NCBI GenBank assembly: GCA_944389495.1 | Contig: CALXMN010000002.1 | Coordinates: 85,704 to 149,703 of the forward strand | Direction of reading: 5' to 3' | Source: an uncultured Alphaproteobacteria bacterium | GTDB lineage: Bacteria > Pseudomonadota > Alphaproteobacteria > Rs-D84 | Length of the DNA: 64,000 nucleotides | In this document: in pieces, positions 4,871 through 61,849 of the stretch | Layout: every line of letters begins with the position of its first letter | Numbering within the stretch: position 1 is the stretch's first letter | Program-made: the position numbers and the translations under genes | The notes under the pieces: model-generated | What the model was told of the DNA's origin: nothing | The model's database searches: none | The model's input: the letters and a program-made list of their open reading frames with translations, nothing else

Positions 4871-4903
4871 GATGTCGTGTTTTTGCCGTAGGAGAATATA
4901 AAT

Positions 4904-12958: not shown

Positions 12959-13079
12959 GTGTGTGATATAATTTCATTGTTGGAATTACGCGGAAAATAT
13001 GATAAAATATACACAATAAGTGTAAGTTAACAATGCCAAAATAACCCAACAATTATTTGTGGCATTAATGGGGGGACGT

Positions 13080-29844: not shown

Positions 29845-29933
29845 TTTATCCCCCATTTTTATGCAAATTATATCATAATCATTTTAATGGCGCCCCAATA
29901 ATTTGTGGGAATCTTTGACTGTGTTATTAGGAC

Positions 29934-30749: not shown

Positions 30750-30817
30750 TGTTGTGTCGGATGGTTGATTGTGCAAAAATCAAATTGTAAGTATTTTTTG
30801 TGCAAGTGGGACGGAAT

Positions 30818-32119
30818 ATGAAAAAGATTATATTTATTGCGTTTGGTTTATTTGCATTTGATGTGTCAAATGTGTTCGCATATACAGAAGTTTGTTCTGT
30901 TTTGGAAAATGGTGAATGTTCGCCGGGGTGCGAATTTGATGAAACCAAGGGTATGTGTAAATTGTGCACGCCCGGAACGTACAGCAATGAAGATGGTGTG
31001 TGCGTAAGTTGTAAAGATGTCGTTGGTTTTCCGCTTTATCTTGACAATTGGGAATATGTGGGTGATGGTGCAGAAAATGTTGACGAATGTAAAGTAAAGA
31101 TATTTTGTGATGCGGGTGAATATCTTGATACGATTGATATGACAACGGTGCAAGGAACAAAAATTGCTTTTAACTGTGCTAAATGTGGGGCGTATTATGA
31201 TTCAGGGGAAAGTGCCGACGGGTTCGAATTTTTTTTAAAGTTTGATATGACGTTGGTTGATGAAAATAACGAGGTTATTCCGGATATTACTGATTATTCG
31301 GTTACGAGATGTGGTGATGGACGCGTTGCAAAATTGATATTGGACAGAAATACCTGGGTGGGGTTCTGGGATGATAAAGAAGCGTATGCAAAATATAATG
31401 TTGGTTTTGCAATGGACGAAAATCCCACAGGTGGGTGGTCGAATGGCGTGTTGCCGGATAAGGCGGTGCAGGGTGACAGACCGATAAAAACATTCAAAGG
31501 ATATTGGACCGGTGAAAATTGTGATGGAACAATGTTTTTTGATGCCGATGGGAAGTTTAATGGAAATTGGTCGGGGTTGTTTGATTCAATGAATTCGAAT
31601 GGCGAGATAACTTTGTTTTCTTGCTGGGAAAATTATACCATTGCCGTCGGATATAAAAATCCCACTGGTTCTGGGAGTGTAACTTGGTATACGCAAAATA
31701 TTACCATAGATGATAACAGCGAGGGACAAAGTTTCCCAATTATGGAATATGGTGGCGAACCAGGTGGCGAGGGAATGGTTTTTCAACATTATACCTGTAC
31801 ATATACCGAGCGTGTCGGGGAACAAGACATTGTGCGTCCCTGCAGCAGTACACAAACTGTATGGAGGCCGGGTGAAGAAATTCCATTGGTTGGAACCAAT
31901 ATAACCTTTACACCTGTGTTTGGGGCGTGTGCGGTCGGCTATTATTGTGTTGGTGGTGAACAAATACCTTGTCCCATGGGAACAACCAGTAATATCGGCG
32001 CGGGGGCGGAATCACAGTGCTTTATGACACGTGGAACGGATGGAACCCAGTTTTGTGATGGCAAGGGTCGGTGTTTCACACTGCCGGGGACCGGAAATAT
32101 AAATTATGAGCCGGATTAA
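30818..32119 (+). CDS. large secreted cysteine-rich protein with CxxC-x-G-x-Y type repeats
   Basis: ATG 30818. Signal peptide MKKIIFIAFGLFAFDVSNVFA|Y. CKLCTPGTYSNEDGVCVSCKD and CAVGYYCVGGEQIPCPMGTTSNIGAGAESQC resemble eukaryote-type GCC2/GCC3 or VSP-like Cys repeats. Confidence 0.6.
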   Translation: MKKIIFIAFGLFAFDVSNVFAYTEVCSVLENGECSPGCEFDETKGMCKLCTPGTYSNEDGVCVSCKDVVGFPLYLDNWEYVGDGAENVDECKVKIFCDAGEYLDTIDMTTVQGTKIAFNCAKCGAYYDSGESADGFEFFLKFDMTLVDENNEVIPDITDYSVTRCGDGRVAKLILDRNTWVGFWDDKEAYAKYNVGFAMDENPTGGWSNGVLPDKAVQGDRPIKTFKGYWTGENCDGTMFFDADGKFNGNWSGLFDSMNSNGEITLFSCWENYTIAVGYKNPTGSGSVTWYTQNITIDDNSEGQSFPIMEYGGEPGGEGMVFQHYTCTYTERVGEQDIVRPCSSTQTVWRPGEEIPLVGTNITFTPVFGACAVGYYCVGGEQIPCPMGTTSNIGAGAESQCFMTRGTDGTQFCDGKGRCFTLPGTGNINYEPD

Positions 32120-36267: not shown

Positions 36268-36975
36268 TTATGCACTGTGGCGATTTATTGCCGCCGCAAT
36301 TTCATCCAATGATGCATTGCACGGTAACATCGGCTCAAACCATATATTGGCGGTGCCACTGTGCATACGGCCGTGTTTGGGCCAGTATAAACCCGCATCG
36401 GTGCCAACCGGTAAAATTGGCAACTTTAATTCGTGGGCCAAAAACAGAAGACCACGTCGCAGTTGAATGTGTTGGCCCGGTTTTGTGCGGGTTCCTTCGG
36501 GAAAAATAATTAATGTTTTTCCATTCATTATCTTTTTTGCAACCGCGTGTGTTAATTTTTTCATATTTGTCGCACCACGGGCACGATTAACCGGCTGCAA
36601 CCCCATACGCCAAAATGCCCATCCATATATCGGAATCCACAATAATTCGCGCTTGATAATAAAAAATGAATTTGGAACGTGGTTTGATAAAACCGCAATT
36701 TCCAGAATCGACATATGCTTGGCGGCAATAATTGATTTACCGTCAAAGCGTATATTGTCATTCGGGGCAACAGGAACACCGTTTTCTTCGTGCGGTGGAT
36801 AATGTATTTCGTATTTTATGCCCGCAACAATACGCGCCCAAAATAAAACGCCACGTGCACACGTCAGTACAAAAAATCTGTTGATGCGATCGGATATTAA
36901 TCCAATTAACAATATTGGGGCCCATAGTATAAAGTGTATCGCAAGTACAATTTTAAAAATAACAGTTCTTATCAT
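36268..36975 (-). CDS. plsC: 1-acyl-sn-glycerol-3-phosphate acyltransferase family
   Basis: N-terminal TM. Acyltransferase blocks AAKHMSILE, PVNRA and IIFPEGTRTKPG. Confidence 0.75.
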   Translation of the reverse strand: MIRTVIFKIVLAIHFILWAPILLIGLISDRINRFFVLTCARGVLFWARIVAGIKYEIHYPPHEENGVPVAPNDNIRFDGKSIIAAKHMSILEIAVLSNHVPNSFFIIKRELLWIPIYGWAFWRMGLQPVNRARGATNMKKLTHAVAKKIMNGKTLIIFPEGTRTKPGQHIQLRRGLLFLAHELKLPILPVGTDAGLYWPKHGRMHSGTANIWFEPMLPCNASLDEIAAAINRHSA

Positions 36976-36997
36976 ATTTTATTTTCCTTTTGTGTTT

Positions 36998-37507
36998 TTA
37001 TCCCTCTTTTATTCCAAATAAAGTAGCGATATATTTTATATATTCTATGGCCCATCGTTCAAGTCTTTTTGTAACGGGCATATCAGTTAATGGTACAGGA
37101 CAGGCCACAATTTCGGTTTGGGGTAATTCGTGCTCTATTAAATATTTGGCACGGTTCATATGATCTTCGGTTGTGATTATTACAATTCTGTCCAGTCCCG
37201 CGCGGGCAGCAATTTTACGTATCGCGCGGGCATTTTGATATGTTGATTTTGAATCAGCCTCGATTGTGACGCGGCGCGCCATTTCAAATGAACCATTTGT
37301 GCCCGCACCAATTATGTATAAATCTGCGTCGGGATGTTTGCGTAACAGGCGCATTGCAAAGGGTATTCTGCGCATATCGCCCGTTAAAACAAATATTGTG
37401 TCATCTGGTAATATTGTTGCACATTGACGCGGGGCAATCGATTTGAAAACCGCACCACCAATAATAAAGCAAGTTATTAATAATAAAGATGGGGTTAATA
37501 ATTTCAT
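36998..37507 (-). CDS. DUF218 (YdcF/ElyC-like) domain protein
   Basis: N-terminal TM. IFVLTGDMRRIPFAMRLL...ADLYIIGAG...RIVIITTEDHMNRA. The start overlaps the ftsX stop (TAATG). Confidence 0.6.
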   Translation of the reverse strand: MKLLTPSLLLITCFIIGGAVFKSIAPRQCATILPDDTIFVLTGDMRRIPFAMRLLRKHPDADLYIIGAGTNGSFEMARRVTIEADSKSTYQNARAIRKIAARAGLDRIVIITTEDHMNRAKYLIEHELPQTEIVACPVPLTDMPVTKRLERWAIEYIKYIATLFGIKEG

Positions 37508-38349
37508 TAATCATTCTTTAAAATTTTTATTGTCGTGCGACGTGTTATCCATATTGCAAATATTATTATTACAACTGGTAACATCAGTAATGCCAGCCAT
37601 CCCCACCCAGAAATCCCCAACATCGCCATTAATCCAACACGCGCACTGTGTGCCGTTCCCAGAATTAACAGTAATACAGGGGCCGCAACCGCAAAACCCG
37701 CCGCGCCCGCCATAATGCATATTTTTGTAATTATAATTTGCATTTGGTGGGCAACATAGGAATCAGTTGCGCCGATTTGATTTAATATTTCCAGTTCGCG
37801 CCGGTGCAATAATGCAGTGTTCTGGGCAATATATGATATACAAATTCCAATCGCCCCCAGGGTCAGTAATAATACAAATGATGAAATTAAAATCATTTTC
37901 CAACCCGCAGATGTGGAACTTTTTAATGCCGCGGCGTGGGTTAAAAAGCGGGCCCTATCGCCAATTTGTGATTGTACAGATTCCAAATCATCCGTTGAAT
38001 TAAACTGTAATTCATACATTTTTGGCAGGTAATTTTCCAGTGCGCCACCACCATTTGACATCCACGGACGTAATAAATCGTGCATTTTTTCCGTGGTAAT
38101 TTCGGTTACAGATTCTATTTTCGTGGCATTTTCATCAAAGATTTTTTTTACAGTATCTGTATTTTTTGTATCCATAATCTGGACCGTGGCGGTTAAATCC
38201 CACTGGGCATTCCAACGGATAACGCCCGTCCCAATCGCCAGGGCAATTCCAAACGCCAATACCGCCAAAAATGTCAACAAGGACATTATTGCCGTCATAA
38301 ATATTGACTGTTCACGTACCAGTGAAAATACAATTGGCCTTTTAGTCAT
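37507..38349 (-). CDS. ftsX: cell-division ABC transporter permease-like FtsX
   Basis: Follows ftsE with no gap. One N-terminal TM, a periplasmic domain and three C-terminal TMs. 280 aa. Confidence 0.8.
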   Translation of the reverse strand: MTKRPIVFSLVREQSIFMTAIMSLLTFLAVLAFGIALAIGTGVIRWNAQWDLTATVQIMDTKNTDTVKKIFDENATKIESVTEITTEKMHDLLRPWMSNGGGALENYLPKMYELQFNSTDDLESVQSQIGDRARFLTHAAALKSSTSAGWKMILISSFVLLLTLGAIGICISYIAQNTALLHRRELEILNQIGATDSYVAHQMQIIITKICIMAGAAGFAVAAPVLLLILGTAHSARVGLMAMLGISGWGWLALLMLPVVIIIFAIWITRRTTIKILKND

Positions 38350-39153
38350 CTATGCGTTCCCAATATCATCAAATTGTTTGGACAGTTCTGAAAAATAGTT
38401 TTGGGGTTTTGGACCCTTCCATATTTTTTGTGGTTGGAGATGTGATGCGACAGTATTTGTGTTTTTGGTGGTGTCTGTAATAAAGCCAACACGATGATTT
38501 TCAACGCGTATTACCGGAAATTTGTATGTTTCCATTAATTTTGTACTGTGTGTGGCAAGTATAATTGTTGTGCCAAACGTTTTGTTCATTTGTACAAACA
38601 GTTCCATTAATCGTGATGCGTTTTCATCATCCAGATTACCCGTTGGTTCGTCGGCCAGCAGGATTGCCGGCTGGATAATAATAGCGCGGGCAACGGATAC
38701 ACGTTGTTGTTGCCCCCCAGAAAGTGTTTTGGGATTTGCGTCCGCGTATTTGGCCAGACCGACCCATTCCAAAACCTTGATAACTAATTTTTTTATCTTG
38801 GATTCCGACAGGCCGCGCACGCGCAGCGGTAATGCCACATTATCAAATACAGACATATGTGATAACAGGGAATATTCCTGGAATACTATGGCCATTTTAT
38901 GGCGTAATGTCGCGATTTGATCGCGGGTCATATCGTTGGTAATGTGACCAAATAACTTGATTTGTCCCCGACACGGTTTGTGTAACTGATATATTAATCG
39001 CAATAATGTTGTTTTTCCCGCGCCCGATGCACCGGACAGAAAGTAAAATGCGCCCGAACTGATATTAAAAGAAACATCAGACAGGACTTCGCGCGCGTTA
39101 TCATCGTATCGTGCGCCAACATTTGCAAAAGAAATTGCGGTATTATCTGACAT
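38350..39153 (-). CDS. ftsE: cell-division ATP-binding protein FtsE (with ~40-aa C-terminal extension)
   Basis: Walker [10 protein letters not shown], signature LSGGQQQRV, Walker [12 protein letters not shown]. Adjacent to ftsX. Confidence 0.9.
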
Positions 39154-39229
39154 ATTAAAAATAATATTAAAAAAAGGTTATATGGTCAAGCGTACATAAA
39201 AATAAAAAATGCGCCAATGGCGCATTTTT

Positions 39230-39634
39230 TTATTCGGCATCAACAACCTTGGTTGTAGAGTTACGATTAAGGGCCCATACCTCTTCGCCGGTGCCGGGAT
39301 ATTGTGGGCGTTCTTTGCCATAGGAAATTGTTTTAATTCTTTCCGGTTCAATTCCGTCTGCAATTAAAACGTGTGCCGCGTTGCCCGCACGTAATGCACC
39401 CAGGGCCAGATTGTATTCCGTTGAACCGCGTTCGTCACAGTGACCTTCGAGTATGACATTAACATCCGGGTTGTTCTTCATATATAATGACTGGGATTCC
39501 AGATTCTCGCGCGCGTCATCAGAAATAACCGCGGAATCAAACGCAAAAAATACTTTGTCATCATTTATGTTGCTGGGGGCGCCGCCGCACGCCGCCAAGC
39601 CCAATACCGCAGAACACAACAAAATTTTTTTCAT
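39230..39634 (-). CDS. pal: peptidoglycan-associated lipoprotein Pal
   Basis: Lipobox LAA|C. OmpA-like domain FAFDSAVISDDARENL and NVILEGHCDERGSTEYNLALGALRAGNA. Confidence 0.9.
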   Translation of the reverse strand: MKKILLCSAVLGLAACGGAPSNINDDKVFFAFDSAVISDDARENLESQSLYMKNNPDVNVILEGHCDERGSTEYNLALGALRAGNAAHVLIADGIEPERIKTISYGKERPQYPGTGEEVWALNRNSTTKVVDAE

Positions 39635-39765
39635 ATCTCTTCCTTTCTTCTATTTACATAAGAAATTTAGCAAATTTTTTAAAAAAATGTCAAGTATGTG
39701 TTTTTCTTCTTTTTTTATATGGGGCATTTGTGTTATACTTACAACAAATAAAAAGGAAGGAAGGT

Positions 39766-40497
39766 ATGAAAAAATTAGTTTCTTTGGCGGTTTTATTGGC
39801 GTTTGCAACGCCGGCGGTGGCCGCGCCCAGTTATTTAACACGTACATCTGATGGTGGTTATCGTGTTACATATGATTATACAGATAAAGCCAAAACCGGT
39901 TGGTATGTCGGTGGTCGGGCGGATTTAAATTTCTGGAATTGGAAAAATAAGTACAGCGTTGATGATGCAATGGTCGACCTGGGCATTGTAAATGGCGATT
40001 ACAGCAGTGATAAGTATTCGTTCGAGCCTGCGTTCGGCGGCAGTATATTTGGCGGTAAACGTTTTGCTTATTTTTGGCGGGCTGAGTTAGAGGCCGGTTA
40101 CCTTGGGTATTTCGAAGATAAAGATGCGGCCGCAGAATTTTCTATGCAGATTCCGTATGTAATGTTAAATGGTTATTATGATTTTACAAATGGTCTGTAT
40201 TTGGGGGCGGGTGTTGGTGTTGCTGTGCCAATAACAACCGTTGATATGGTGTGGGCCGATGGTGCCGATCGTACAGAATATGGCGTTGCGCCAATGGCGG
40301 GAATAATGCTTGGGTATTCGTATGATTTAGATTATAATCTGGTGTTGGATTTCCGTTATCGTTTGTCTGCGATGACCGGTCTGGATCAGCGTATAGATAA
40401 TATATATGATAATCACGGTGGTGTGCATTGGTTCCAGAATGATATTGACTTTATTTTGGATAATTCAATATCAATTGGTATCAGATATGAATTTTAA
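39766..40497 (+). CDS. small outer-membrane beta-barrel protein
   Basis: ATG 39766 follows GGAAGGAAGG. Signal peptide MKKLVSLAVLLAFATPAVA|A. Alternating aromatic/Gly strands. C-terminus SISIGIRYEF with terminal Phe. Confidence 0.65.
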   Translation: MKKLVSLAVLLAFATPAVAAPSYLTRTSDGGYRVTYDYTDKAKTGWYVGGRADLNFWNWKNKYSVDDAMVDLGIVNGDYSSDKYSFEPAFGGSIFGGKRFAYFWRAELEAGYLGYFEDKDAAAEFSMQIPYVMLNGYYDFTNGLYLGAGVGVAVPITTVDMVWADGADRTEYGVAPMAGIMLGYSYDLDYNLVLDFRYRLSAMTGLDQRIDNIYDNHGGVHWFQNDIDFILDNSISIGIRYEF

Positions 40498-40509
40498 CAC
40501 AATTAGGTA

Positions 40510-40539
40510 TTGACCCGATTCGCAAAAATATGATATTAT
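40510..40539 (+). promoter_or_regulatory. candidate promoter of the fibre gene array
   Basis: TTGACC (40510-40515), 18-bp spacer, TATTAT (40534-40539), about 20 nt before the GTG at 40561. Confidence 0.35.
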
Positions 40540-40560
40540 TGAGTAGGTAGAGAGAATATC

Positions 40561-43185
40561 GTGAAAAAAGATCTGAAAACTTCAACACTGGCAATAATTT
40601 GCGTATTATGTACGGCGGCGGTATCTGGTGCATACGGTGCCGCTTCGGTTCGATCTTTGGGTGGCAGTGGTACGTATACCAGTGCGTCCAGTGCGTCCAG
40701 TGCGGCGGCCTCTAATGATTCTGGGGCGGCGTCTGTACGAGGTGGGTCTGTGCGCGTTAATCCGACATCTGGCGTGTCGGGGACAAGTGCGACGGTAAGT
40801 GCGGGCACCACGACCAGTGGGCGTGTTGCAACAACGCCACGTTTGTCCATTGGGCATTATTTGGGTGGTGGTACGTCGATCAGTGGGGGCAGTTCGCTGC
40901 GTCCGCAAACGCCGGGGGCGTCCACGGGTGGAACCTCGTCCGGTGGTGGTTCTATGGATCCGGATGTTGCGGCCGGTCTGCGGCAAGAGGTTGATCAGTT
41001 GCGTCGTGATGTGGACGAACTGGGGTCGGTGAATGATAATATCAATGATGCAATCGATGATTTAAGCCAGGGAAAGCAAGATACGTTGGTTCCGGTGGTG
41101 GATGGTTATATTATCATAGACAGCAATAACGAGATTTTTGTTGATGTTGATGCCTTGGCCCAAGAAATTGGCGAGGTTGCAGGTCAAGATGGGCGCGAGG
41201 TTGTGTTGGGTTATGATGACAATAACCTGTTGTGGCGCTATGACGATGAGAGTTCTTGGAGTGTTTTAATACCTAAATCTGAAATTACCGGACCCCAAGG
41301 TCCCCAGGGTGAAAAGGGCGAACCGGGCGAGGCCGCGAATTTAGACGCGTATTCCACGACCGAACAAATGAATGCTGCGATTGAAAAAGCGATTGCGGAT
41401 TTGGCGGGTGTTTATGCGACAACGGAATATGTGGATACAAAATTGTCTGCCAAGGCGGACAAGGCCACAACCCTGGCGGGGTATGGTATTAGGGACGCAA
41501 TGACCGAGGAAGAAATTAACAGAGCCATTGAAGATGCGACCAAGGATATTGTGGGCAGTGAAGAGATTGAACAATTCAAGGGCGATGTTGCGGGGTTAAA
41601 AACGACGGTTGGTGATGAAAATTCCGGACTGGTCAAAGATGTTAATGATTTGTCGGGTGCTGTGACCGCGTTGGATGGTGAAATGGATACGGTTTCCCAA
41701 TTGGCGGGCAGTGCGGCATCCACAGCGACCGGGGCGGCGGAAAGCGCGGCCCAGGCGTTGTCGGGCCTGGCGGATAAAGAAGACAAGGCAAACAAAAAAA
41801 CAACACTGACCAATAGTGATACAGATTATCCGTCTACGTCCGCGGTAACGGCGGCGTTGGCGGATTATGTAAAAACAGATGTCTTGCCGGGTGAAATTGG
41901 TGCGGCATTGGAAAATGCCGGTGCGGTGACCGATGAAAATATTTCTGAAAAGTTGTCTGGTTATGCCACCGATGAAGATTTGGCGGCCAAAGCCGATGCG
42001 TCGGATGTCGAAGCACTGGGGCAGCGTGTTGATGCGGCCGAAACAAATATTGAAGATATAAACACTACAATTGGTTCGGGCGAGTTGGCCACAACAGATA
42101 AAACCGTTTTGGGTGCAATTAATGAATTGAAATCTAAAACAGATGGAATGGCGACGGATGGTAATTTTGAAGAAATGAATAACAAGATTACCGAAATGGA
42201 AAGCCAGTTGAACGGAAAGCAAGATGTGTCGAACTTGGTTCAGGTTGTGTCCGAGGCTGATACAACAAAATACCCATCTGGCGCGGCCGTGTATAAAGAA
42301 TTGGAAACCAAGGCCAATGCGTCCGATCTGGATAACTATGTCACGAACGATGGCCTGGCAACGGCGGTTGATGGTGTGTTGGATACGGCCGGCGTTGTGA
42401 CGGATGAAAATTTGGCCGAAAAATTGGATGGCTATGCCACTGATGAAGAATTGGCGGGCAAGGCCGATGCATCTGATGTTGCAGAATTGGAAACGGCTGT
42501 TGGTGCATTGGAAACAACGGTTGGTGACGGCGAATCCGGTTTGGTAAAAGATGTTGCCGATGCAAAGGCGGCGGCTGATAAGGCAAGCCAAGATGTGGCC
42601 GGTAAACAAGATGCGTTGACCGCTGAACAATTGAACGCCGTGAATTCGGGCATTACTGCGGAAAAGGTTTCTGTATACGACGGCTATGCCGATGATATCG
42701 CGGGCAAGCAAGATGCGTTGGGATACACCGCCGAAAATGCCGCGAACAAGACCGACGATATGGCGACGGATACCGGATCCACGACCAAATATCCGACGGT
42801 TCACGCAGTCGAGGCATATGTTGCCAGTCAGGTTGCCGAAGGGGTTGAAATTAACACAGATCAAATTGCGGCCGGTGCGGTTAAAACGGATCAGATTGGT
42901 AATGGGGCCGTGACAGAAGAAAAATTGTCTGATGAATTAAATGCCGAAATCGATGGTAAAGAAGACAAGGCTAATCTGAAAGCGTTGGCATACAAGGATC
43001 AAATCAAGGATGCCGATGTTGCGGACGATGCGGCAATTGCAAAATCTAAATTGGCGTTGGATGTTCAAACGGCGTTGAATAATGCTGCGAATGCAGTGGT
43101 CGCGCCGGCGGGCGAAAAGCCATCTAACAGCGTATTGGGCACGGATGGCAAAGGCGATCCAGTGTGGTATGAAATCGCAATGTAA
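40561..43185 (+). CDS. exported tail-fibre-like mosaic protein 1 (874 aa)
   Basis: GTG start. Signal peptide MKKDLKTSTLAIICVLCTAAVSGAYG|A. S/G/T-rich linker, coil LRQEVDQLRRDVDELG, collagen triplets GPQGPQGEKGEPGEA. Phage-fibre motifs LAGYGIRDA, TDYPSTSAV, TKYPSGAAVY, TKYPTVHAVEAYV. Repeats ENISEKLSGYATDEDLAAKADASDVEAL and ENLAEKLDGYATDEELAGKADASDVAEL. Confidence 0.75.
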   Translation: MKKDLKTSTLAIICVLCTAAVSGAYGAASVRSLGGSGTYTSASSASSAAASNDSGAASVRGGSVRVNPTSGVSGTSATVSAGTTTSGRVATTPRLSIGHYLGGGTSISGGSSLRPQTPGASTGGTSSGGGSMDPDVAAGLRQEVDQLRRDVDELGSVNDNINDAIDDLSQGKQDTLVPVVDGYIIIDSNNEIFVDVDALAQEIGEVAGQDGREVVLGYDDNNLLWRYDDESSWSVLIPKSEITGPQGPQGEKGEPGEAANLDAYSTTEQMNAAIEKAIADLAGVYATTEYVDTKLSAKADKATTLAGYGIRDAMTEEEINRAIEDATKDIVGSEEIEQFKGDVAGLKTTVGDENSGLVKDVNDLSGAVTALDGEMDTVSQLAGSAASTATGAAESAAQALSGLADKEDKANKKTTLTNSDTDYPSTSAVTAALADYVKTDVLPGEIGAALENAGAVTDENISEKLSGYATDEDLAAKADASDVEALGQRVDAAETNIEDINTTIGSGELATTDKTVLGAINELKSKTDGMATDGNFEEMNNKITEMESQLNGKQDVSNLVQVVSEADTTKYPSGAAVYKELETKANASDLDNYVTNDGLATAVDGVLDTAGVVTDENLAEKLDGYATDEELAGKADASDVAELETAVGALETTVGDGESGLVKDVADAKAAADKASQDVAGKQDALTAEQLNAVNSGITAEKVSVYDGYADDIAGKQDALGYTAENAANKTDDMATDTGSTTKYPTVHAVEAYVASQVAEGVEINTDQIAAGAVKTDQIGNGAVTEEKLSDELNAEIDGKEDKANLKALAYKDQIKDADVADDAAIAKSKLALDVQTALNNAANAVVAPAGEKPSNSVLGTDGKGDPVWYEIAM

Positions 43186-43197
43186 AGGAAAGAAAGA

Positions 43198-45021
43198 ATG
43201 AGAAAGACAAATATCGCATTTTCTGGATTTATGGCGGCAATTTTGTTCAGTGCCGGTGCGGCCAATGCAGCAACGCAGATTGCCAGCAAACAGTACGTTG
43301 ATGACAATTACGCCACAAAAACAGTTGTACAGGAAATTCAAACAGATGTAGGTGCGTTGAACACCGCGATTAATGATCCGGAAAATGGCCTTGCGGGCAA
43401 GGTTGATAGTTTGGACGACGCGATTAATAACGCAGAGACGGGGTTGTCGGCCCAGGTTCAGGATGCGGTTGATGCCGCCGACGCCGCGAGCACTGCGGTT
43501 GACCAACTGGGGATCAAGGTTGACGCGTTGGAAACAACCGTTGGGGACGAGGCGGCCGGCTTGGTCAAAGATGTAAATGATTTGGAAACAACGGTTGGTC
43601 AGTTGGATACAGAACTGGATTCTAAATTGGATTCTGCAACCGCTGCAACAACATATGAAGTTTTATCAAACAAGGCGGCTGCAATCAACGAAGGTAATCA
43701 AACATCGCCAACAGCATATCCGTCAGTGGGCGCAATCGTTCAGTGGACCAATCAAAAGATTGCTGATTTATCCGATACCGGATTGCCGGTAAATCCGGGT
43801 AATATCGAAGACGGAACTATTGCTGGCAGTAAATTGGAAAATGGTGCCGTGACGACCGATAAAATTGGGGCGGATGCTGTTAATGGCGACAAAATTGCCG
43901 ATGATTCTATTGGTGCCGAACATATCAAAGATGGCGCGGTTGGATCCGACGCGATTGCCGATGGCAGTGTGACTGGCACAGATATTGCCGATGGTACCAT
44001 TTCCGCGGATAATTTGGATACGGCGTTGAATGCAGAAATCGATGGCAAAGAAGATAAAATAAACAAAGCCACCGCCATTGATTCAACCAACCAGGCATCC
44101 ACAGACGCATATCCGTCTGTCAAGGCTGTATATGATTGGACCACGCAACAGATTGCAAATGTTGAATTTGATCCGTCGACCGATATTGCCGATGGTGGTT
44201 TAAGTGGCGATAAAATTACCGATGGCACAATTACCGGTGACAAGATTGCCGATGACGCGGTTGATTCCGCGGCGATTGCCGACGGCAGTGTGACCGAGGC
44301 TGATTTGAACACCGATCTGGCCAGCAAGATTAATGGCAAACAGGACAAAAATGTTGGCGCGGATAACAGCGGTAAAATCCTGACCGTGGGTGCGGATGGC
44401 AATATCACGACATCTGCCACAATTGCCCAAAGTGCGGTTGATGGTTTGGAAACCGCCCTGGCGGACAAGGCCGACGCGGGCGATTTGACCACAATTAATG
44501 AAACAATTGAAACGATTGAACAAAACGTCAACAGCATCACCGCCGCCGATACCGGTTTGCTGGCGCAAAAGGAAGATGCCGCGAACAAGACCAAGGCGAT
44601 TACCGAGGAAAATAAATCATCCGAGACTTTGTTCCCGACAATTGGTGCAATTACCCAGTGGACCAACACGGAAATTCAAAAAATCCGTGACGAAGGAATC
44701 GACATCGGAACCGATAATATTGGCGAGGGCGCGGTTCAGACGGTTAATTTGGGTAATGGCGCGGTGACCACGGAAAAGATTGCGGATAAAGCCGTGACAG
44801 ATGAGAAGTTGTCTGATGAATTAAATGCTGAAATTGATGGCAAGGCAAATGCTGCGGATGTTTATACGAAATTGGAAACAGATGGCAAGATTGTGGAAAT
44901 TGCAATCCCCAGACCGACCGCGGATTGTCAGGCGGCATCTGGATTGTGCGTATTGTCGGTAACAACCGGGGGCGATTTGGCGTGGGTTAATGTTACAGAA
45001 CCGGCCGGTGATTCAGAATAA
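43198..45021 (+). CDS. exported tail-fibre-like mosaic protein 2 (607 aa)
   Basis: RBS GGAAAGAAAGA. Signal peptide ...SAGAANA|ATQIASKQYVDDNY. Motifs TAYPSVGAIVQW, DAYPSVKAVYDW, TLFPTIGAITQW. Repeats I(A/E)DG(T/A)I(T/A)G(D/S)K(I/L). Cys-bounded tip DCQAASGLCVLSV..LAWVNV. Confidence 0.75.
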   Translation: MRKTNIAFSGFMAAILFSAGAANAATQIASKQYVDDNYATKTVVQEIQTDVGALNTAINDPENGLAGKVDSLDDAINNAETGLSAQVQDAVDAADAASTAVDQLGIKVDALETTVGDEAAGLVKDVNDLETTVGQLDTELDSKLDSATAATTYEVLSNKAAAINEGNQTSPTAYPSVGAIVQWTNQKIADLSDTGLPVNPGNIEDGTIAGSKLENGAVTTDKIGADAVNGDKIADDSIGAEHIKDGAVGSDAIADGSVTGTDIADGTISADNLDTALNAEIDGKEDKINKATAIDSTNQASTDAYPSVKAVYDWTTQQIANVEFDPSTDIADGGLSGDKITDGTITGDKIADDAVDSAAIADGSVTEADLNTDLASKINGKQDKNVGADNSGKILTVGADGNITTSATIAQSAVDGLETALADKADAGDLTTINETIETIEQNVNSITAADTGLLAQKEDAANKTKAITEENKSSETLFPTIGAITQWTNTEIQKIRDEGIDIGTDNIGEGAVQTVNLGNGAVTTEKIADKAVTDEKLSDELNAEIDGKANAADVYTKLETDGKIVEIAIPRPTADCQAASGLCVLSVTTGGDLAWVNVTEPAGDSE

Positions 45022-45073
45022 ACGACCCAAAAGTAATTGAAAAAACTAAAAAAAAGAAAGAAAGGAAGGAAAA

Positions 45074-46285
45074 ATGAAAAAATTAACAGCAGGCATTTTT
45101 GCAACATTATTGGCCGTGGTTTCGGCCGATGGGGCATACGCAGCAATCGCATCCAAGGGATACGTTGATGACCAGGTTGGTGCAGTTGAATCAACGGTTT
45201 CAACCATCAATGAAACTGTGACCGAATTGGGTGATACAATTAATAACGCGGAAACCGGTTTGGGTAAACAGGTGGAAGATTTAAAAACCACTGTTGCCGA
45301 CAAGGCGGACTCTTCAACCGTTACCGCGTTGGATGGACGTGTTGATGCGGCCGAGGGCGAAATTGACGCGTTGCAAACCGCAGCAACAACGTATGCAACC
45401 AAAACGGAATTGGCTGGAAAGCAAGATACAATTGCCGGTGCACAGTTAGAGGCATTGAATTCAGGAATTACCGCGGACAAGGTAGGGGCATATGATGGTT
45501 ATGCCGCACAGATTTCTGGCAAGTTAGACACTGCAACAGCAGATGAAAAATATGCTGTTAAATCAACCGAGGGCGTTGCCAGTACAGCCAGCACAAATGC
45601 ACAAAAGGCATTAACAAACATTGGTACATTGTCTGAATTGACAACAGAAGCCAAGGGCAACACTGTTGCGGCAATCAATGAAGTAGCAAGCGAGGCCGCC
45701 GCCGCCGCCAGTGCAGCGTCCGCAGCAGATACCAAGGCCGGCCAGGCGCAATCAGACGCCGCCACCGCCCAGGGCGATGTTGACGCGTTGGAAGCGGTTG
45801 TGAACAATGAAACAACCGGTTTGGCCGCCGCGCATACCGCAATTGATGCCGTAGAAGGTCGGGTGACCACAGCCGAGGGTGAAATTGATTCCATCCAGTC
45901 AGAAATGGAAAAGATGGCAACATCTGAAACTGTTGCAGGCTTGAAAACAGACGTTGATGGTTTAAAGACAAGTAAGTTGGATAAAGCCACTTATGATTCT
46001 CAGGTCGGTACTGTAAGTGCTGGCAATATGGGAACAACGGCATCAACGGTTGTTACCGCTATCAAGGAAGTAAAGACACAGGCTGACAAGGGCGTTTCTG
46101 ATGCGGCAACTGCAAAATCAGCAGCAGACGCAGCCCAAGATGCAGCCGAAGCAGCACAGGCAACCGCCAATGCAGCCATCCCGAAACCAGATGGTGAATG
46201 TTCAAATCCGGCCAACAAGTGTGTGTTGACATGGAACAATTCAGCATATGCGTGGGAAGTGATTGAACGCGGCGCGGAGGAATAA
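45074..46285 (+). CDS. exported tail-fibre-like mosaic protein 3 (403 aa)
   Basis: RBS GGAAGGA. Signal peptide ...VVSADGAYA|AIASKGYVDDQV. Ala-rich coiled stalk. GAQLEALNSGITADKVGAYDGY. Tip GECSNPANKCVLTWNNSAYAWEVI. Confidence 0.75.
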   Translation: MKKLTAGIFATLLAVVSADGAYAAIASKGYVDDQVGAVESTVSTINETVTELGDTINNAETGLGKQVEDLKTTVADKADSSTVTALDGRVDAAEGEIDALQTAATTYATKTELAGKQDTIAGAQLEALNSGITADKVGAYDGYAAQISGKLDTATADEKYAVKSTEGVASTASTNAQKALTNIGTLSELTTEAKGNTVAAINEVASEAAAAASAASAADTKAGQAQSDAATAQGDVDALEAVVNNETTGLAAAHTAIDAVEGRVTTAEGEIDSIQSEMEKMATSETVAGLKTDVDGLKTSKLDKATYDSQVGTVSAGNMGTTASTVVTAIKEVKTQADKGVSDAATAKSAADAAQDAAEAAQATANAAIPKPDGECSNPANKCVLTWNNSAYAWEVIERGAEE

Positions 46286-46296
46286 TTGTGCCGATA

Positions 46297-46331
46297 TATA
46301 TGTGCGGTGTGAAACGCGCACCGCACATATA
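46297..46331 (+). terminator. 13-bp stem hairpin between fibre genes 3 and 4 (no clear U-tract)
   Basis: TATATGTGCGGTG-TGAAACGCG-CACCGCACATATA. Confidence 0.4.
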
Positions 46332-46402
46332 CAACCCAAAAAACAAAGCAGAGCAGAGTAGCGAAACTAAATAAACATTTATTAAGTTTTTGAGACACAG
46401 AT

Positions 46403-48577
46403 ATGATGAAAGTTAAAGGTATTTTCGCAGTTTCACTTATCGCCATAATGGTCGTTGGGGGGGCGTATGCCAATGTCGCGTCCAGTGGTTATGTCGATGA
46501 AAAAATCGACGGGTTGGCCACTGTTGCGAAAACGGGTGCGTATGGTGATTTGTCGGGTCGTCCGACCATTCCGACGGTGAATAACGCCACGTTGACCATC
46601 CAGAAAAATGGCGCCACCGTCGATACGTTTACTGCGAATGCGTCTGCGAACAAGACGATTAATATCACTGTGCCGACCCAAACCAGTCAATTGACCAACA
46701 ATAGTGGTTTTATTACCGCGGACGATTTGCCAGATGGTTATACTTTGCCGGTTGCAACCGCCAATGCGTTGGGTGGTGTGAAATCTGGTGGTGATATTAC
46801 TGTGGCGACCAGTGGCGCCGTGACTGTGAATAGTGCGACCCAGGCCGACAGAGCAACAACCGCCGCAAGTGCCACCAAGGCGACACAGGATGCGTCCGGG
46901 AATGTGATTACATCAACGTATGCAACGAAAACTGAATTAAACGCGAAGCAAAATGCCAGCACCGCCGTAGAGGTTGCCACCGCCGGAACCGCGGTTGGGG
47001 ATTCTACGCACCCGGTGTATGTTAATGCCAGTGGTGTTGCAACAAAAATAGACAAGGTTGCCGCCGCAGCCAAGGCCGATACTGCGACAAGTGCAACAAG
47101 GGCCACGACCGCAACCAATGCGACAAATGCAACCAATGCGACAAATGACGCAGATGGGAACGAGATTACCGAAACATACGCGACAAAATCTGAATTAACG
47201 TCCGGTTTGTCCGGAAAACAGGCGACTTTGTCGAGTGCGCAATTGAATGCGGTGAATTCTGGGATTACGTCGACCAAGGTATCAACCTATGACGGATATA
47301 ATGCGAAAATAACCGCCGCGCAGGATACCGCCGATGACGCCGTCGCCGCCGCCGCCGCCGCACAAAGCACGGCCAGTGGCAAGTTATCCAGCATATCGGG
47401 GTCAACCGGTGGAACGGGGAATGTGGTGACCAGTGTTTCGGCATCGGGGTCAACCGTTTCCGCAACCAAGGGTATAACCGCGGAAGAAACAAAAAATAAA
47501 GTGACCTCTGTGCGTGCCGCAGCCAGCGCGACTGATACTGCGTATCCGTCTGAAAAGGCCGTTGCCACCGCTTTGGCGACCAAGGCGAATACGTCCGCAC
47601 TGTCCGGGTATGCAACAACAACAGCGTTGGGTGCAGTCGAAGACAAGGCCGAAGCAGCGCAATCTGCGGCCAGTGCAGCGCAAAGCACCGCCAATGCCAA
47701 GGTTACTACCGCACAGGGTTCTGGTAATGCGAACAAGGCCGTGATTACAAATGCGTCCGGTAATATTACAACGGGACAAATTGCGTCGGGTATGATTGCC
47801 AATGGAGCGGTGTCGTCTGCCAAGATTGGTACAGGTGCGGTTGGAAATGGTAATTTGGCGAATAATGCGGTGACGTCTGCGAAAATTGCAGATGGCACAA
47901 TTACAAATGCCGATATTTCTGATGATGCCGCCATAGATGCCGCCAAAATCGACGGCTTGGCGACGGTCGCAACATCTGGGTCTTATAATGATTTGGCGAA
48001 TAAACCAAGCATTCCGACCGTGAATAATGCCAAGTTGACCATCCAGAAAAATGGTACGAATGTTGCGACGTTTACGGCGAATTCGGCCAGTGCGGCGACC
48101 GCGAATATTACTGTGCCGACCAAGACCAGTGAACTGACCAATGACAGCAATTTTGCCACAACCACCCAGGTGAACGCGCGTGTCGCAACCGCCCAGGGAA
48201 CGGATAATGCGAATGACGTTATGGTGGTGAATGCGTCCGGGAATGTGGCGCCTGCGTTGATTACGAATGCGAATATTTCCAGTTCGGCCGCAATCGCACA
48301 GAGCAAGATTTCGGGGCTGACCGATGCGTTGGCGGGCAAATTATCCACGGGTGGCACCGCGGCACGGGCCACGGCCGACGCCAGTGGGAATAATATTGTA
48401 AACACCTATGCGACCAAGTCGCAAATAACCGCACTGGACAGCACATCGACCGGCACCGGTGCCGTGGTGACGGGTGTATCCCAGAAGGATGGCAAGGTTT
48501 CCGTGACCAAGGGGAATGTTAAGATTCCGGTTGGTGGTGAAAGTGCAACGTCGTATGCGACAATTTGGATAGAATAA
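46403..48577 (+). CDS. exported tail-fibre-like mosaic protein 4 (724 aa)
   Basis: Signal peptide ...MVVGGAYA|NVASSGYVDEKI. Internal 69-aa duplication (GLATVAKTGAYGDLSGRPTIPTVNNATLTIQKNG... and GLATVATSGSYNDLANKPSIPTVNNAKLTIQKNG...). Motifs DASGNVITSTYATK, DADGNEITETYATK, DASGNNIVNTYATK, TAYPSEKAV. Ends SYATIWIE. Confidence 0.75.
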   Translation: MMKVKGIFAVSLIAIMVVGGAYANVASSGYVDEKIDGLATVAKTGAYGDLSGRPTIPTVNNATLTIQKNGATVDTFTANASANKTINITVPTQTSQLTNNSGFITADDLPDGYTLPVATANALGGVKSGGDITVATSGAVTVNSATQADRATTAASATKATQDASGNVITSTYATKTELNAKQNASTAVEVATAGTAVGDSTHPVYVNASGVATKIDKVAAAAKADTATSATRATTATNATNATNATNDADGNEITETYATKSELTSGLSGKQATLSSAQLNAVNSGITSTKVSTYDGYNAKITAAQDTADDAVAAAAAAQSTASGKLSSISGSTGGTGNVVTSVSASGSTVSATKGITAEETKNKVTSVRAAASATDTAYPSEKAVATALATKANTSALSGYATTTALGAVEDKAEAAQSAASAAQSTANAKVTTAQGSGNANKAVITNASGNITTGQIASGMIANGAVSSAKIGTGAVGNGNLANNAVTSAKIADGTITNADISDDAAIDAAKIDGLATVATSGSYNDLANKPSIPTVNNAKLTIQKNGTNVATFTANSASAATANITVPTKTSELTNDSNFATTTQVNARVATAQGTDNANDVMVVNASGNVAPALITNANISSSAAIAQSKISGLTDALAGKLSTGGTAARATADASGNNIVNTYATKSQITALDSTSTGTGAVVTGVSQKDGKVSVTKGNVKIPVGGESATSYATIWIE

Positions 48578-48607
48578 AAAATCCCCGCCATCCGGCGGGA
48601 TTTTTTA
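48576..48607 (+). terminator. intrinsic terminator ending the fibre array
   Basis: AAAAAATCCCCGCC-ATCC-GGCGGGATTTTTT. Confidence 0.8.
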
Positions 48608-48670
48608 TTAGTGTGCAAAGTGAAGAATATATAGTGCAGATGTTGTCCGTGCGAATGCGCGGATTTTTTA

Positions 48671-48871
48671 TGGATTGCCACGCTTCGCTCGCAATGACAA
48701 AAAGTGGGGCAATGACGAGTGGTTGGTGATGTGGATTGCCACGCTTCGCTCGCAATGACAAAGGGTGGGGGGCAATGACAAGGGGGCGGAGAGTTCAAGG
48801 AAACATAGGGAGGTCGCGCGAATGTGCGCGCATATAATTACTGGATTGCCACGCTTCGCTCGCAATGACAA
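48671..48871. repeat. three perfect copies of a 30-bp dyad-containing repeat
   Basis: TGGATTGCCACGCTTCGCTCGCAATGACAA occurs at 48671-48700, 48732-48761 and 48842-48871, with an internal ATTGC...GCAAT dyad. Each copy is followed by a G-rich tail (GTGGGG...CAATGAC). Spacers are 31 and 80 bp. Confidence 0.9.
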
Positions 48872-49073
48872 GTGGTGGGGTGGCGGACAGTTGTCTGGTG
48901 TCAAGCCCGTCGGGTTCGTGCATAATGTATGCACCGGCAAACACGCAATATACGGACTTGTTGGGTATATATAATTTTACAGCCGCCTGTCCGTTGGAAT
49001 AAATTTGGGTTGCTGATTCAGTTTTTTTACTGGATTTTCAACATCGGACACAATGTGTGGGGGATCGTCGAAT

Positions 49074-52878: not shown

Positions 52879-53877
52879 ATGGCGCACCAGTTCTTTTTTA
52901 ATCCGTTCATATTGGATAATTTGCCGGCACCCAGTGTCGGATTTGATGTTGTCCAAGATGTGTCCGAACCACGGCTTAGAATGTATGTGACAAGTCGGGG
53001 GGTCAAGACCTTTTTTGTGCGCAAGCGGGTTCACGGGCGCGATAAACGTATTATTATCGGTAACTATCCGGATATTGATATAGAAACCGCACGTGGTGCG
53101 GTGCCCGAAATATTGGCCGCCGCCCAAGAAAAACCGCGTACGCACAGAAAAAAAATAAGTTTGAAAAAATTCTTGGAAATTTATTTGGAAAAACGGGTGC
53201 GTCGTAACAGTGTGTCACGTGATAAATTGGAACGCGCAATTGCAAATCATTTGGGGCCGATTCTTGATAAAAATATTTCTGATATTACGGCCGATGATAT
53301 TGCGGAAACAATCGCGGAAATTAATGGCCCCGCCATTGCGGGACGTATGCAAGAATTTTTGCAAAGCGTTTTTAGATATGCAATTGATTCAGGATATGCC
53401 AAACAAAATCCAGTTGTGGGATTGGCCAAGATAAAACAAAATCGTCGTGTGCGACCGTTGAATAAAGCCGGTTTTCACAGACTTATGAACGCCATAGAGC
53501 GTGAAGATGATATAAATATGCGTGCCGCGTTTTTAATGTTGGTTTATGGATTCGCGCCAAAGTCCCAGGTGTTTTCTATGCAGTGGCGCGATTTGGATTT
53601 TAATCATTATACGTGGTGTGAACGGCCGCTGTCGGACAGGGCGGTTGTATTGTTACAGGATTTACCACAAAATGGGCGTTGGGTTTTCCCGGGACGTGGG
53701 CGCGGCCATCTTACCGATCCGCGTGTGGCGTGGCGGCGTGTGGCCAAAAATTCAGGAATACCAAATTTGACAATGGATGATGTTAATAAGTTCTTGATGC
53801 GGCAATTGGTTTGGACTTCGGATAAAGAAGTTTTTCGTGATAATATGAATGCATTGTTGAACGAGGTTTTGGCATAA
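52879..53877 (+). pseudogene. degenerate P4-type tyrosine integrase homologue (arm/DUF4102-like N-terminus kept, catalytic residues not recognisable)
   Basis: The N-terminus LRMYVTSRGVKTFFVRKRVHGRDKRIIIGNYPDIDIETARGAV matches the integrase arm domain. In the catalytic half, YGFAPKSQVFSMQWRDLDF replaces TGxRxxE, TMDDVNKFLMRQL replaces HxxR, and there is no terminal LxH...Y. At 332 aa it is shorter than the usual ~400 aa. The ORF is intact, so it could also be a repurposed non-catalytic protein. Confidence 0.55.

Positions 53878-55875: not shown

Positions 55876-55892
<17 letters not shown>
55679..55892. repeat. 43-bp perfect direct repeat (tRNA-Pro 3' end plus its terminator) bracketing a 128-bp GC-rich insert
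   Basis: CCACCCGTTGGGTGGTTTTTATTTTGTGGTCGGAGTGACTGGG occurs at 55679-55721 and 55850-55892. The insert at 55722-55849 is visibly GC-rich. It contains TCGCTGGTTCGAACCCA (55812-55828), a 17-nt copy of the tRNA variable-loop/T-arm region in inverted orientation. Confidence 0.9.
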
Positions 55893-55952
<60 letters not shown>

Positions 55953-61258: not shown

Positions 61259-61404
61259 ATATTCGCTTTCCGTGTAAACAAGGAAAGAAAAAACACAGAA
61301 TTCTGCATATTCTGACAGATTTATAATCGCGGCCACGCCGTTGAAATAATTCTGAACAGATGTTTTGTGCAGATAAAAAGGTACAAAAAACAAAGAGATT
61401 TTGA

Positions 61405-61776
61405 ATGCCAACAGTAAATCAACTGATTCGGAAGCCGCGTAAAAAGGTTGTTGTTAAGTCGACGGCGCCCGATATGATGCAGGCCCCGCAGAAACGCGGC
61501 GTTTGCACGCGTGTGTATACAACCACACCAAAAAAGCCTAATTCGGCCCAGCGTAAGGTGGCCCGTGTAAAATTGGCCAATGGTCGTGAAGTTACGGCCT
61601 ATATCCCGGGCGAAGGGCATAATCTGCAGGAGCACAGTGTTGTTATGATCCGTGGCGGACGTGTAAAGGACTTGCCCGGTGTGAAGTATCATATCATTCG
61701 TGGTGTGCTTGATACCAAGGGTGTCGAGAGCAGAAAGCAGGGGCGGTCCCTGTATGGTGCCAAGGTGGCAAAATAA
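61405..61776 (+). CDS. rpsL: 30S ribosomal protein S12
   Basis: [14 protein letters not shown]...[59 protein letters not shown]. Confidence 0.95.
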
Positions 61777-61849
61777 TAATTTGTACACACGGGGAAACCC
61801 GGGTGAGTAATTTGGGTTGTGCCCAGATGAAGCAATAAAAGGAATAAAA

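Follow-up and report, generated by a model that had tools for sequence, protein, structure and literature searches.

A core-genome array of phage-fibre-like mosaic proteins with conserved ends and variable interiors in gut Alphaproteobacteria of the order Rs-D84

The 64,000-nt window analysed here (contig CALXMN010000002.1 of GenBank assembly GCA_944389495.1, from an uncultured alphaproteobacterium of the Rs-D84 lineage) contains a tandem array of four genes, named F1 to F4 in plus-strand order, whose products carry Sec-type leaders and are built in part from modules also present in phage tail fibres. The strongest property of the array, missed by an earlier interpretation of the same DNA made without database searches (the sequence-only reading), is that it fills a core-genome slot in which the ends of each protein are frozen and the interiors are exchanged between species. 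We lean, by a modest degree of confidence, towards the view that F1–F4 are Sec-exported, rod-like fibres built with phage-type modules, displayed on the cell surface, diversified by recombination and mediating contact with a partner or host. The array is best filed under the idea of cell-encoded, phage-fibre-like mosaic surface fibres. No Pfam, NCBIfam, or PDB family covers F1–F4, and library scans gave nothing above cutoff. More than 3,000 homologous proteins exist in public data (at least 727 for F3, at least 2239 for F4 and at least 600 for F1), all from metagenomes or metagenome-assembled genomes (MAGs) and none of them named. The fibre proteins are unmentioned in the genomic survey of Rs-D84 (PMC12306168) or in the other literature found on Enterousia and Rs-D84; the family and its locus are previously undescribed.

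The array is part of the core genome in Candidatus Enterousia and the order Rs-D84. One genome per species was scanned with the F3 N-terminal patterns, a search of relatives for the shared motif and for synteny that the sequence-only reading had proposed. It returned 29 loci, all from uncultured gut Alphaproteobacteria (Candidatus Enterousia spp., entries labelled "uncultured Rickettsiales UMGS…", and one closed 958,618-bp MAG). Every locus with its flanks present has the fibre genes in the same slot, in the order pal, outer-membrane protein (OMP) gene, fibres, dedA, rbfA, (GNAT), lepA. Most species have four genes in the array and some have five or six. Because the slot is the same in all of these loci, the array is not prophage cargo, and the assignment of the genes to the host stands for every related genome examined. 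Rs-D84 genomes measure 0.75–1.0 Mb, lack a tricarboxylic acid cycle, respiration, and standard transporters, and have incomplete glycolysis; a partner-dependent lifestyle has been proposed for them (PMC12306168).

The four same-strand genes and their separation by gaps of 12, 52, and 117 nt were reproduced exactly: F1 lies at 40561..43185 (874 aa, GTG start), F2 at 43198..45021 (607 aa), F3 at 45074..46285 (403 aa), and F4 at 46403..48577 (724 aa), all on the plus strand. The region's best sigma-70-like promoter match (40510..40539, plus strand; TTGACC-18-TATTAT with an extended −10 TG) is placed 22 nt before the F1 start and has 10 of 12 consensus positions plus the TG, a consensus match only. 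A terminator-like site, likewise a consensus match only, follows the F4 stop by 7 nt and consists of a GC-rich hairpin with a T-run on both strands, hence bidirectional (48584..48599). The promoter-like site, the small gaps, and the terminator-like site together make the four genes one transcription-unit-like array.

The Sec-type signal peptides claimed for all four proteins passed heuristics for the n-, h-, and c-regions. Each N terminus has two or three Lys/Arg residues within its first 6 positions, a strongly hydrophobic 12-residue core (mean Kyte-Doolittle 2.2–3.1), and a small-x-small cleavage site, marked here by a caret: AYG^AA in F1, ANA^AT in F2, AYA^AI in F3, and AYA^NV in F4. The predicted signal peptides, all on the plus strand and all supported by the same heuristic check, occupy 40561..40638 in F1 (MKKDLKTSTLAIICVLCTAAVSGAYG^AA), 43198..43269 in F2 (…SAGAANA^AT), 45074..45142 in F3, and 46403..46471 in F4 (…VVGGAYA^NV). 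Leaders and cut sites are conserved among the orthologues of the 29 genomes, invariant or nearly so across species, and this conservation is stronger evidence than a predictor score. A hydropathy check found no membrane-like hydrophobic segment downstream of the leader in F1–F4. The only Cys residues are those of the F1 leader and of a C-terminal pair that F2 and F3 conserve, which fits disulfide formation after export, in an oxidising compartment. Lipoprotein anchoring was rejected, as no lipobox could be read in F1–F4.

All four proteins have abundant Ala, Thr, Asp, Gly, and Ser and are nearly devoid of Cys, His, Trp, and Phe; this composition accounts for the local G+C content of 0.49–0.52, compared with ~0.42–0.44 in the flanks. 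In F1, the leader (aa 1–26) is followed by a conserved ASSVRSLGGSGTY motif, a Gly/Ser/Thr-rich linker of ~110 aa, a conserved coiled coil, a Trp-containing domain, five collagen triplets, a mosaic rod, and the conserved ending NSVLGTDGxGxPVWYEIAM. Its N-terminal ~230 aa are retained even by 372-aa orthologues, and the Gly/Ser-rich N-terminal region is absent from F2–F4. F2 passes from its leader (aa 1–24) into ATQIASKQYVD, coiled-coil segments, and runs of a 10/11-residue I-x-DG-x-V repeat (aa ~180–400), and finishes in a conserved Cys-loop, P.PxADCxxxSGLCVLxVxxGGDLAWVNVTEP. F3 has an invariant leader (MKKLTAGIFATLLAVVS…AYA^A), IASKGYVD, a rod that is almost wholly helical, and a Cys-loop beta-hairpin ending, AAIPKPDGECSNPANKCVLTWNNSAYAWEVIERG. 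F4 begins with its leader (aa 1–23) and NVASSGYVD and continues through a ~70-aa module present twice (aa 34–103 and 515–584), three DA(S/D)GNxIxxTYATK modules, an Ala-rich helical segment, and I-x-DG-type repeats to the conserved ending VTKGNVKIPVGGESATSYATIWIE; an ending of this type closes the last gene of every array. The two copies of the F4 duplication, GLATVAKTGAYGDLSGRPTIP…SQLTNNSGF at 46502..46711 and GLATVATSGSYNDLANKPSIP…SELTNDSNF at 47945..48154 (both plus strand; direct repeat families D3 and D6), are 76–78% identical in nucleotide sequence, and phage tail-fibre proteins contain matches to the duplicated module.

The motifs listed by the sequence-only reading were checked by regular expression on the F1–F4 proteins, and nearly all were recovered as described. 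The mature N-terminal pattern [IV]AS[KS][GQ]YVD was found in F2, F3, and F4 and not in F1; QLxA[VL]NSGITxxKVxxYDGY in F1 (position 690), F3 (124), and F4 (280); LSDELNAEIDGK in both F1 and F2; GLVKDV twice in F1 and once in F2; and the five collagen triplets (GPQGPQGEKGEPGEA) at aa 244–258 of F1, with none in F2–F4. The figure of eight copies for YP(S/T)xxAV was slightly generous: the strict pattern YP[ST]xxAV occurs five times, and F2 has two looser copies. Three motifs are restricted to F4, namely (T/S)G(A/S)Y(G/N)DL..(R/K)P(T/S)IP (two copies), S(E/Q)LTN(D/N)S(N/G)F (two copies), and DA(S/D)GNxIxxTYATK (three copies). DNA direct repeats between F1 and F2 (86 nt at 79%) and within F4 (141 + 51 nt at 76–78%) bear out the sharing of modules among paralogues; the shuffling also spans strains and species. 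Invertible, shufflon-type switching was rejected, as inverted repeats of at least 30 nt are absent from the array and the integrase-like gene nearby is conserved, with recognisable domains in its N-terminal part only.

Orthologues of F1–F4 range from 130 to 1064 aa, and their divergence is unlike that of the flanking proteins. Median best high-scoring-pair identity is 69–93% over essentially the full length for the flanks (LepA 93, FtsE 87, DedA 87, Pal 85, OMP 69), compared with 45–53% over only 30–75% of the length of the window's protein for F1–F4. The conservation that remains is concentrated at the two ends and is specific to each position in the array. Across species, F1 begins MKxDLKISxLAIICVLCTAVSGAYG^ASSVRSLGGSGTY and ends NSVLGTDGxGNPVWYEIAM; F2 begins …SAGAANA^ATQIASKQYVD and ends P.PxADCxxxSxLCVLxVxxxGDLAWVxVTxP; F3 begins MKKLTAGIFATLLAVVS…A^xIASKGYVD and ends AAIPxPxxxCxxxxNKCVLxxxxxxYxWEVIxRG; and the protein of the last gene begins …FAVSFIAMM…A^xIASQGYVD and ends VTKGNVxIPVGxxxATxYATIWVE. 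F1–F3 and the extra genes of the larger arrays share the ending (P.P...)VL-x(5-9)-W-x-x-[IV]. Short orthologues (159–160 aa for F4, 225 aa for F2) lose the middle and keep both ends. The earlier statement that the C-terminal ends differ is thus right in that they differ by position, but F1–F3 share an ending and the C terminus at each position is strongly conserved across species, so that it misses the main pattern of constant ends and a variable rod. In a more distant rumen relative (RGIG4808; locus L023, 11308–14795), array genes 3–5 start (L/V)A(S/G)G(D/S)W(T/V)N(K/N)YFVDF instead of IASKGYVD, and the last gene retains its …VPVGSATVTNKYATIWIED ending. Since the last-gene ending is kept there without IASKGYVD, the terminal motif is older than the shared N-terminal motif.

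Comparison with individual relatives located the variation within single genes. Contig L064, from the same species, matches the window at 97% identity over 36367–45383, a stretch that takes in flanks, F1, F2, and the 5' part of F3, and at 95% over 46110–48714; the F3 interior between them is essentially unalignable. This cassette (45383..46110, plus strand), replaced relative to the conspecific strain, finds its closest sequences in the F3 genes of other species: positions 45376–45534 are 97.5% identical to L008 and 45376–45849 are 91.6% identical to L001, whose flanks are only ~75–80% identical to the window. The 5' end of F3, encoding leader and N terminus, is 88–92% identical across species. 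Similar mosaics were seen with L065 (1384 nt of F4 at 92.7%, flanks ~75%) and L010 (623 nt of F4 at 90.5%, 786 nt of F2 at 87%, and 122 nt of F1 at 96%, flanks 80.5%), and overall, fibre segments are 87–97.5% identical to those of species with flanks at ~70–81%. Many F4 homologues have 85–97% identity across just 8–42% of the query. These comparisons indicate that fibre segments are exchanged between strains and species by homologous recombination, with breakpoints inside the genes.

Such a pattern could also be that of a variable surface coat. Abundant exposed fibres would then be selected for antigenic and phage-receptor variability, evading host immunoglobulin A and phages, rather than serve as adhesins, and the conserved ends would be needed only for export and assembly. 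The conserved termini with a hypervariable and length-variable interior, the strain-level cassette swap with exchange between species, and the variability of the adjoining OMP gene, the highest among the flank genes, all agree with this explanation. Its closest analogy is flagellin. Flagellin and type IV pilin variation likewise combine conserved export and assembly termini with an exposed interior that is hypervariable and exchanged by recombination, but there is no sequence or domain kinship with F1–F4, export here is by Sec and not by a dedicated pathway, and no polymerisation is implied. Four to six distinct fibres with their own ends in a genome of ~0.9 Mb suggest a specific function over and above camouflage, and the modules shared with phages come from binding proteins. 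A coat is possible rather than probable, and it is the main alternative; the coat and adhesin explanations are compatible with each other.

The relationship to phage fibres is confined to modules. The sequence-only reading had described the protein bodies as chains of phage-fibre-type modules; this was upheld for parts of F2 and F4, which match phage tail-fibre proteins, but the matches are patchy, with no PHROG match for F1 or F4 and no viral relative for F1. Residues 154–276 of F2 match phrog_892 (tail fiber protein) at 3e-23, and tblastn with F2 found cyanophage and pelagiphage tail-fibre ORFs at 38–45% identity, in the I-x-DG-x-V region only and with coverage of no more than 28%. An exhaustive HMMER search with F2 gave ~60 close clusters and, beyond these, only the I-x-DG-x-V repeat in giant proteins of 1,000–5,500 aa that have no informative Pfam domain. 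The repeat is thus widespread, and the remainder of F2 is limited to a few dozen clusters. For F4, PHROGs and tblastn against GenBank phages returned nothing, and IMG/VR proteins matched aa 154–272 and 519–598 with E values down to 2.5e-19. These viral proteins share the DAxGNxIxxTYATK region (156 aa, 44–49% identity, E ~1e-19) and the SGSYNDLxNKPxIP module, and three of them fall in PHROG tail-fibre or minor-tail families. None has a leader, and their N and C termini are unrelated to those of F4. One F4 relative contains Pfam Phage_fiber_rpt (PF22337). F1 had neither a PHROG match nor an IMG/VR relative. Phage tail fibres (PHROG 892, 9729, 33406; PF22337) resemble F1–F4 in the I-x-DG-x-V repeats, in (S/T)G(S/A)Y(N/G)DLxxKPxIP, DAxGNxIxxTYATK, and LAGYGIxDA, and in mosaic evolution through module exchange, but module-level matches fall short of tail-fibre family membership over most of any of the four proteins. 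Tail fibres also lack a Sec leader and are encoded inside virion modules, and particle-attachment N termini and variable C-terminal binding domains belong to the phage proteins.

Prophage, tailocin, or gene transfer agent (GTA) cargo was rejected on the conserved Sec leaders and the core-genome synteny, and fibres of a virion, tailocin, or GTA are excluded for the same reasons. A variant of this idea places the rest of a phage-derived particle (a tailocin, a GTA, or a cryptic prophage) elsewhere in the genome, as in Rhodobacter, whose GTA has its head-spike and tail-fibre genes at remote sites. The modules are common to phage tail fibres, GTAs are frequent in Alphaproteobacteria, and the inspection covered only 64 kb of the genome. 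Against it, particle fibres assemble in the cytoplasm without Sec leaders, whereas F1–F4 have conserved leaders of the cleavable type and a C-terminal Cys pair; the slot in the core genome is fixed in ~29 species; and the N termini do not resemble the domains through which the matching viral proteins attach to particles. No scanned ORF of the window matches a capsid, terminase, portal, tail, or lysis family, in agreement with the earlier observation that phage structural and lysis genes are missing (the scan took in ~40 window ORFs with Pfam; a few short ORFs were left out, and PHROGs were not run on the flanks). We consider a particle encoded elsewhere highly improbable.

Structure-based searches were also made. 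Sequence searches of the PDB, which includes solved fragments of the Bdellovibrio fibres discussed below, with F1, F2, F4, and an F4 profile returned nothing meaningful. AlphaFold2 monomer models were of low confidence (predicted local distance difference test [pLDDT] 45.5 for F4 and 52.6 for F3), as expected for intertwined fibres. The F3 model is a near-continuous helix over residues 2–368 with a beta-hairpin at 383–396 that spans the Cys loop, at pLDDT 50–68. Foldseek searches of the F3 and F4 models against the PDB and BFVD found no match below E = 0.1. The predicted helical rod of F3, ending in a single beta-hairpin, resembles T4 fibritin in architecture only, and we take the C-terminal pattern P-x-P…(G)xYVL…G…W-x-x-I to recall the foldon sequence, with homology unsupported in searches. 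Foldon homology of the C termini was rejected: a profile of 30 C termini against the PDB, where foldon-tagged constructs are numerous, retrieved no foldon-tagged chain at E ≤ 10, and hhalign against the fibritin C terminus gave a probability of 0.2%. There is thus no statistical sequence similarity to fibritin or its foldon.

The closest concept is the mosaic adhesive trimer (MAT) fibres of Bdellovibrio bacteriovorus (Caulton et al. 2024, PMC10769870). Both systems consist of host-encoded, multi-paralogue fibre proteins with phage-like chimeric modules in an organism living off other cells, and both combine a signal peptide and a conserved N-terminal element with a surface location, proposed or shown, and no known outer-membrane anchor. 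The sequence-only reading had set the array apart from MATs by its signal peptides and shared mature N terminus; this contrast fails because in all 21 MATs, too, a signal peptide precedes a conserved N-terminal domain (PMC10769870). That domain is ~130 aa long and beta-rich, the C-terminal tips of MATs are variable, and 13 of the 21 have an S74 chaperone-protease (PMC10769870). F1–F4 possess the signal peptide (heuristic leaders, conserved), but no counterpart of the ~130-aa N-terminal domain is apparent when the two are compared by description: F2–F4 run from the cleavage site into IASKGYVD and a helical rod, so the shared element is only ~8 residues long, and the N-terminal region of F1 is different again. 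Nor is there a variable tip, as Pfam finds no Peptidase_S74 or tip domain and the C termini are conserved. Here the C termini are constant by position and the rods vary, a layout opposite to the phage and MAT pattern of a variable C-terminal tip; in addition, the genes form one fixed syntenic array of 4–6 members in a reduced-genome alphaproteobacterium. On the two tested features, F1–F4 are not members of the MAT family.

Other exported fibres were compared in the same way. Trimeric autotransporter adhesins (YadA/BadA/Hia) share with F1–F4 a Sec leader, long repetitive coiled-coil stalks with beta modules, variable length, mosaic evolution, and an adhesin role in host-associated Proteobacteria. 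They differ in their YadA-type anchor barrel, in place of which F1–F4 have soluble-looking beta-hairpin motifs of ~30–40 aa at the C terminus. A Pfam scan (E ≤ 1) found no YadA_anchor or any other autotransporter domain in F1–F4, and trimeric autotransporter identity is excluded because of this missing anchor barrel. The extended G-X-Y stalk of bacterial collagen-like proteins (BclA/Scl/Lcl) was not found either; F1 has five triplets and no Collagen match in Pfam.

Collectively, the results can be arranged into a working model of exported surface fibres. The four genes form one chromosomal unit, and each product would be exported via Sec and its leader cut at the conserved A-x-A/G site. The mature proteins would be long rods in which coiled coils alternate with or adjoin short beta-repeat modules, F1 also having collagen triplets, each rod ending in a small conserved C-terminal beta element that would be disulfide-locked in F2 and F3. 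The position-specific ends are the constrained parts and may serve in export, in oligomerisation (probably trimer nucleation), and in docking to the envelope or to one another. The rod interiors would be exposed and continually replaced by homologous recombination, with crossovers at the conserved ends and the shared modules and with donor DNA from other strains and species. The end result would be a small, variable set of fibres on the cell surface that contacts a partner cell or a host surface, a contact role suggested by the partner dependence to which the organism's metabolism points. Trimer state, outer-membrane crossing, surface display, and adhesin role are the parts of the model that we infer; an adhesin function is plausible.

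Several observations weigh against this model. Pfam, NCBIfam, and inspection of the sequences revealed no autotransporter barrel, lipobox, type I or type IX secretion signal, or S74 domain in F1–F4. The structure predictions have low confidence (pLDDT 45–53) and the fold searches were empty, and the similarity to phage proteins is limited to parts of F2 and F4, with none in F1. A conserved C terminus on a variable rod is unlike the variable-tip arrangement of receptor-binding fibres, so the variability may reflect antigenic or phage pressure and not binding specificity. The window encodes a single secretin, which belongs to the type IVb-pilus (PilN) kind and is not GspD of the type II secretion system. 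This secretin, overlooked by the sequence-only reading, is a 542-aa protein encoded after a 367-aa TcpQ-domain protein (3767–6532, plus strand), and among NCBIfam models it matches the type-IVb-pilus secretin PilN best (2.3e-70, below cutoff). Its presence means that the reduced genome keeps a pilus-type outer-membrane channel, and it is a possible channel for the fibres. A possible anchor partner is the small outer-membrane beta-barrel protein (255 aa; 39730..40497, plus strand; Pfam OMP_b-brl at 2.4e-06, just below cutoff) encoded directly upstream of F1 in the same orientation. It adjoins F1 wherever a locus extends into the left flank, and its median identity of 69% makes it the most variable of the flank genes.

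A Sec leader without a recognisable outer-membrane export or anchor domain would also be expected of periplasmic or envelope-spanning structural rods, acting as tethers or spacers among inner membrane, peptidoglycan, and outer membrane. Such a role fits the Tol-Pal/FtsEX neighbourhood (pal, tolB, ftsEX, and the OMP gene), and weak matches to Alanine_zipper (Lpp-like) were obtained with Pfam in F3 and some relatives. Hypervariability, interspecies exchange, and a size range of 130 to more than 1000 aa would be unexpected for scaffolds, however, as would phage tail-fibre modules and collagen triplets. Rods of 600–870 aa would also far exceed the width of the periplasm. Periplasmic rods are, for these reasons, improbable.

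A bolder extension of the surface-fibre model, which we hold to be unlikely, is that the array encodes an ordered, multi-protein contact organelle of an obligately partner-dependent gut alphaproteobacterium, a cellular analogue of the phage receptor-binding apparatus that arose independently of MATs. A tandem of four fibre genes whose junction ends are conserved is reminiscent of the end-to-end assembly of the T4 long tail fibre (gp34–37), and by analogy, the strict gene order suggests that a similarly ordered assembly may exist. F1, whose gene type invariably opens the array and whose N-terminal region is unique, would be the envelope-proximal anchor; the …IPVGxxxATxYATIWVE protein is always last and so would be the distal element. 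Between them, the IASKGYVD N termini would dock onto the preceding hairpin C termini or onto a common base, as in gp34–37, and the resulting fibre, diversified by recombination in phage style, would recognise and hold partner cells.

Rs-D84/Enterousia bacteria are widespread and uncultured in human and animal guts, and genomes of ~0.9 Mb imply dependence on other cells. Hypervariable exported fibres encoded in their core genome are an obvious candidate for the contact apparatus, or for the main immune or phage target. If the surface-fibre model is true, the array would add to Bdellovibrio a second and independent example of phage-fibre building blocks used on a cell's own envelope. It would differ from that case in its reverse layout, with constant tips and variable shafts, and in clear inter-species traffic of cassettes.

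The remainder of the window is largely housekeeping. Pfam recognised SufB, PlsY, DprA, DnaA, GyrB, DnaJ, UvrC, an AsmA-like protein, CdaA, DnaN, PPase, EF-P, a class-II aldolase, TolB, FtsE, Pal, the small OMP barrel, a DedA/VTT protein, GNAT, FabF, an acyl-CoA ligase, and YceG; FtsX, RbfA, and LepA were assigned by position, synteny, and the Pfam labels of the L065 orthologues. Eight sizeable ORFs (195–488 aa) have no Pfam or NCBIfam match (276–1175, 7171–8148, 9260–10144, 13059–14525, 30800–32119, 59284–60069, 61321–61953, and 62371–62958), which fits a published remark that Rs-D84 genomes encode many uncharacterised proteins. An integrase-like ORF of 332 aa (52879–53877, plus strand) has recognisable Arm-DNA-binding and central domains and no match to a catalytic domain. 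It is present at the same position in ~20 species with 64–83% amino acid identity and, being conserved in position, is not a recent mobile element.

The DNA to the right of the array shows rearrangements of its own. Between the F4 terminator and dedA, the window has three ~53-nt copies of a repetitive extragenic palindrome (REP)-like element (48657–48880; core GGATTGCCACGCTTCGCTCGCAATGACAA), which create spurious ORFs with repeated "SLRAKRGNP/CHCERSVAIH" peptides. The dedA-rbfA segment is inverted relative to the window in L003 (4709–5726) and L065 (12075–13093), and the interval from F4 to dedA holds two inserted ORFs in L002 (13246–14613), one of the GIY-YIG type (118 aa) and one PAP2-like (206 aa). 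Elsewhere in the window, dprA (10251–11279) lies near the TcpQ/secretin pair, a tRNA-Pro gene is located at 55876–55952, and dnaA (11568–12926) and dnaN (25158–26276) are 12 kb apart and not adjacent. GC skew is positive over almost the whole window, which places it on one replichore near the origin. An ORF of the class-II fructose-bisphosphate aldolase family was identified at 28897–29856 (minus strand; PF01116, 1.4e-89). Fructose-bisphosphate aldolase was reported absent from Rs-D84 genomes in the published survey (PMC12306168); the ORF may encode a tagatose-type paralogue or may have been overlooked there.

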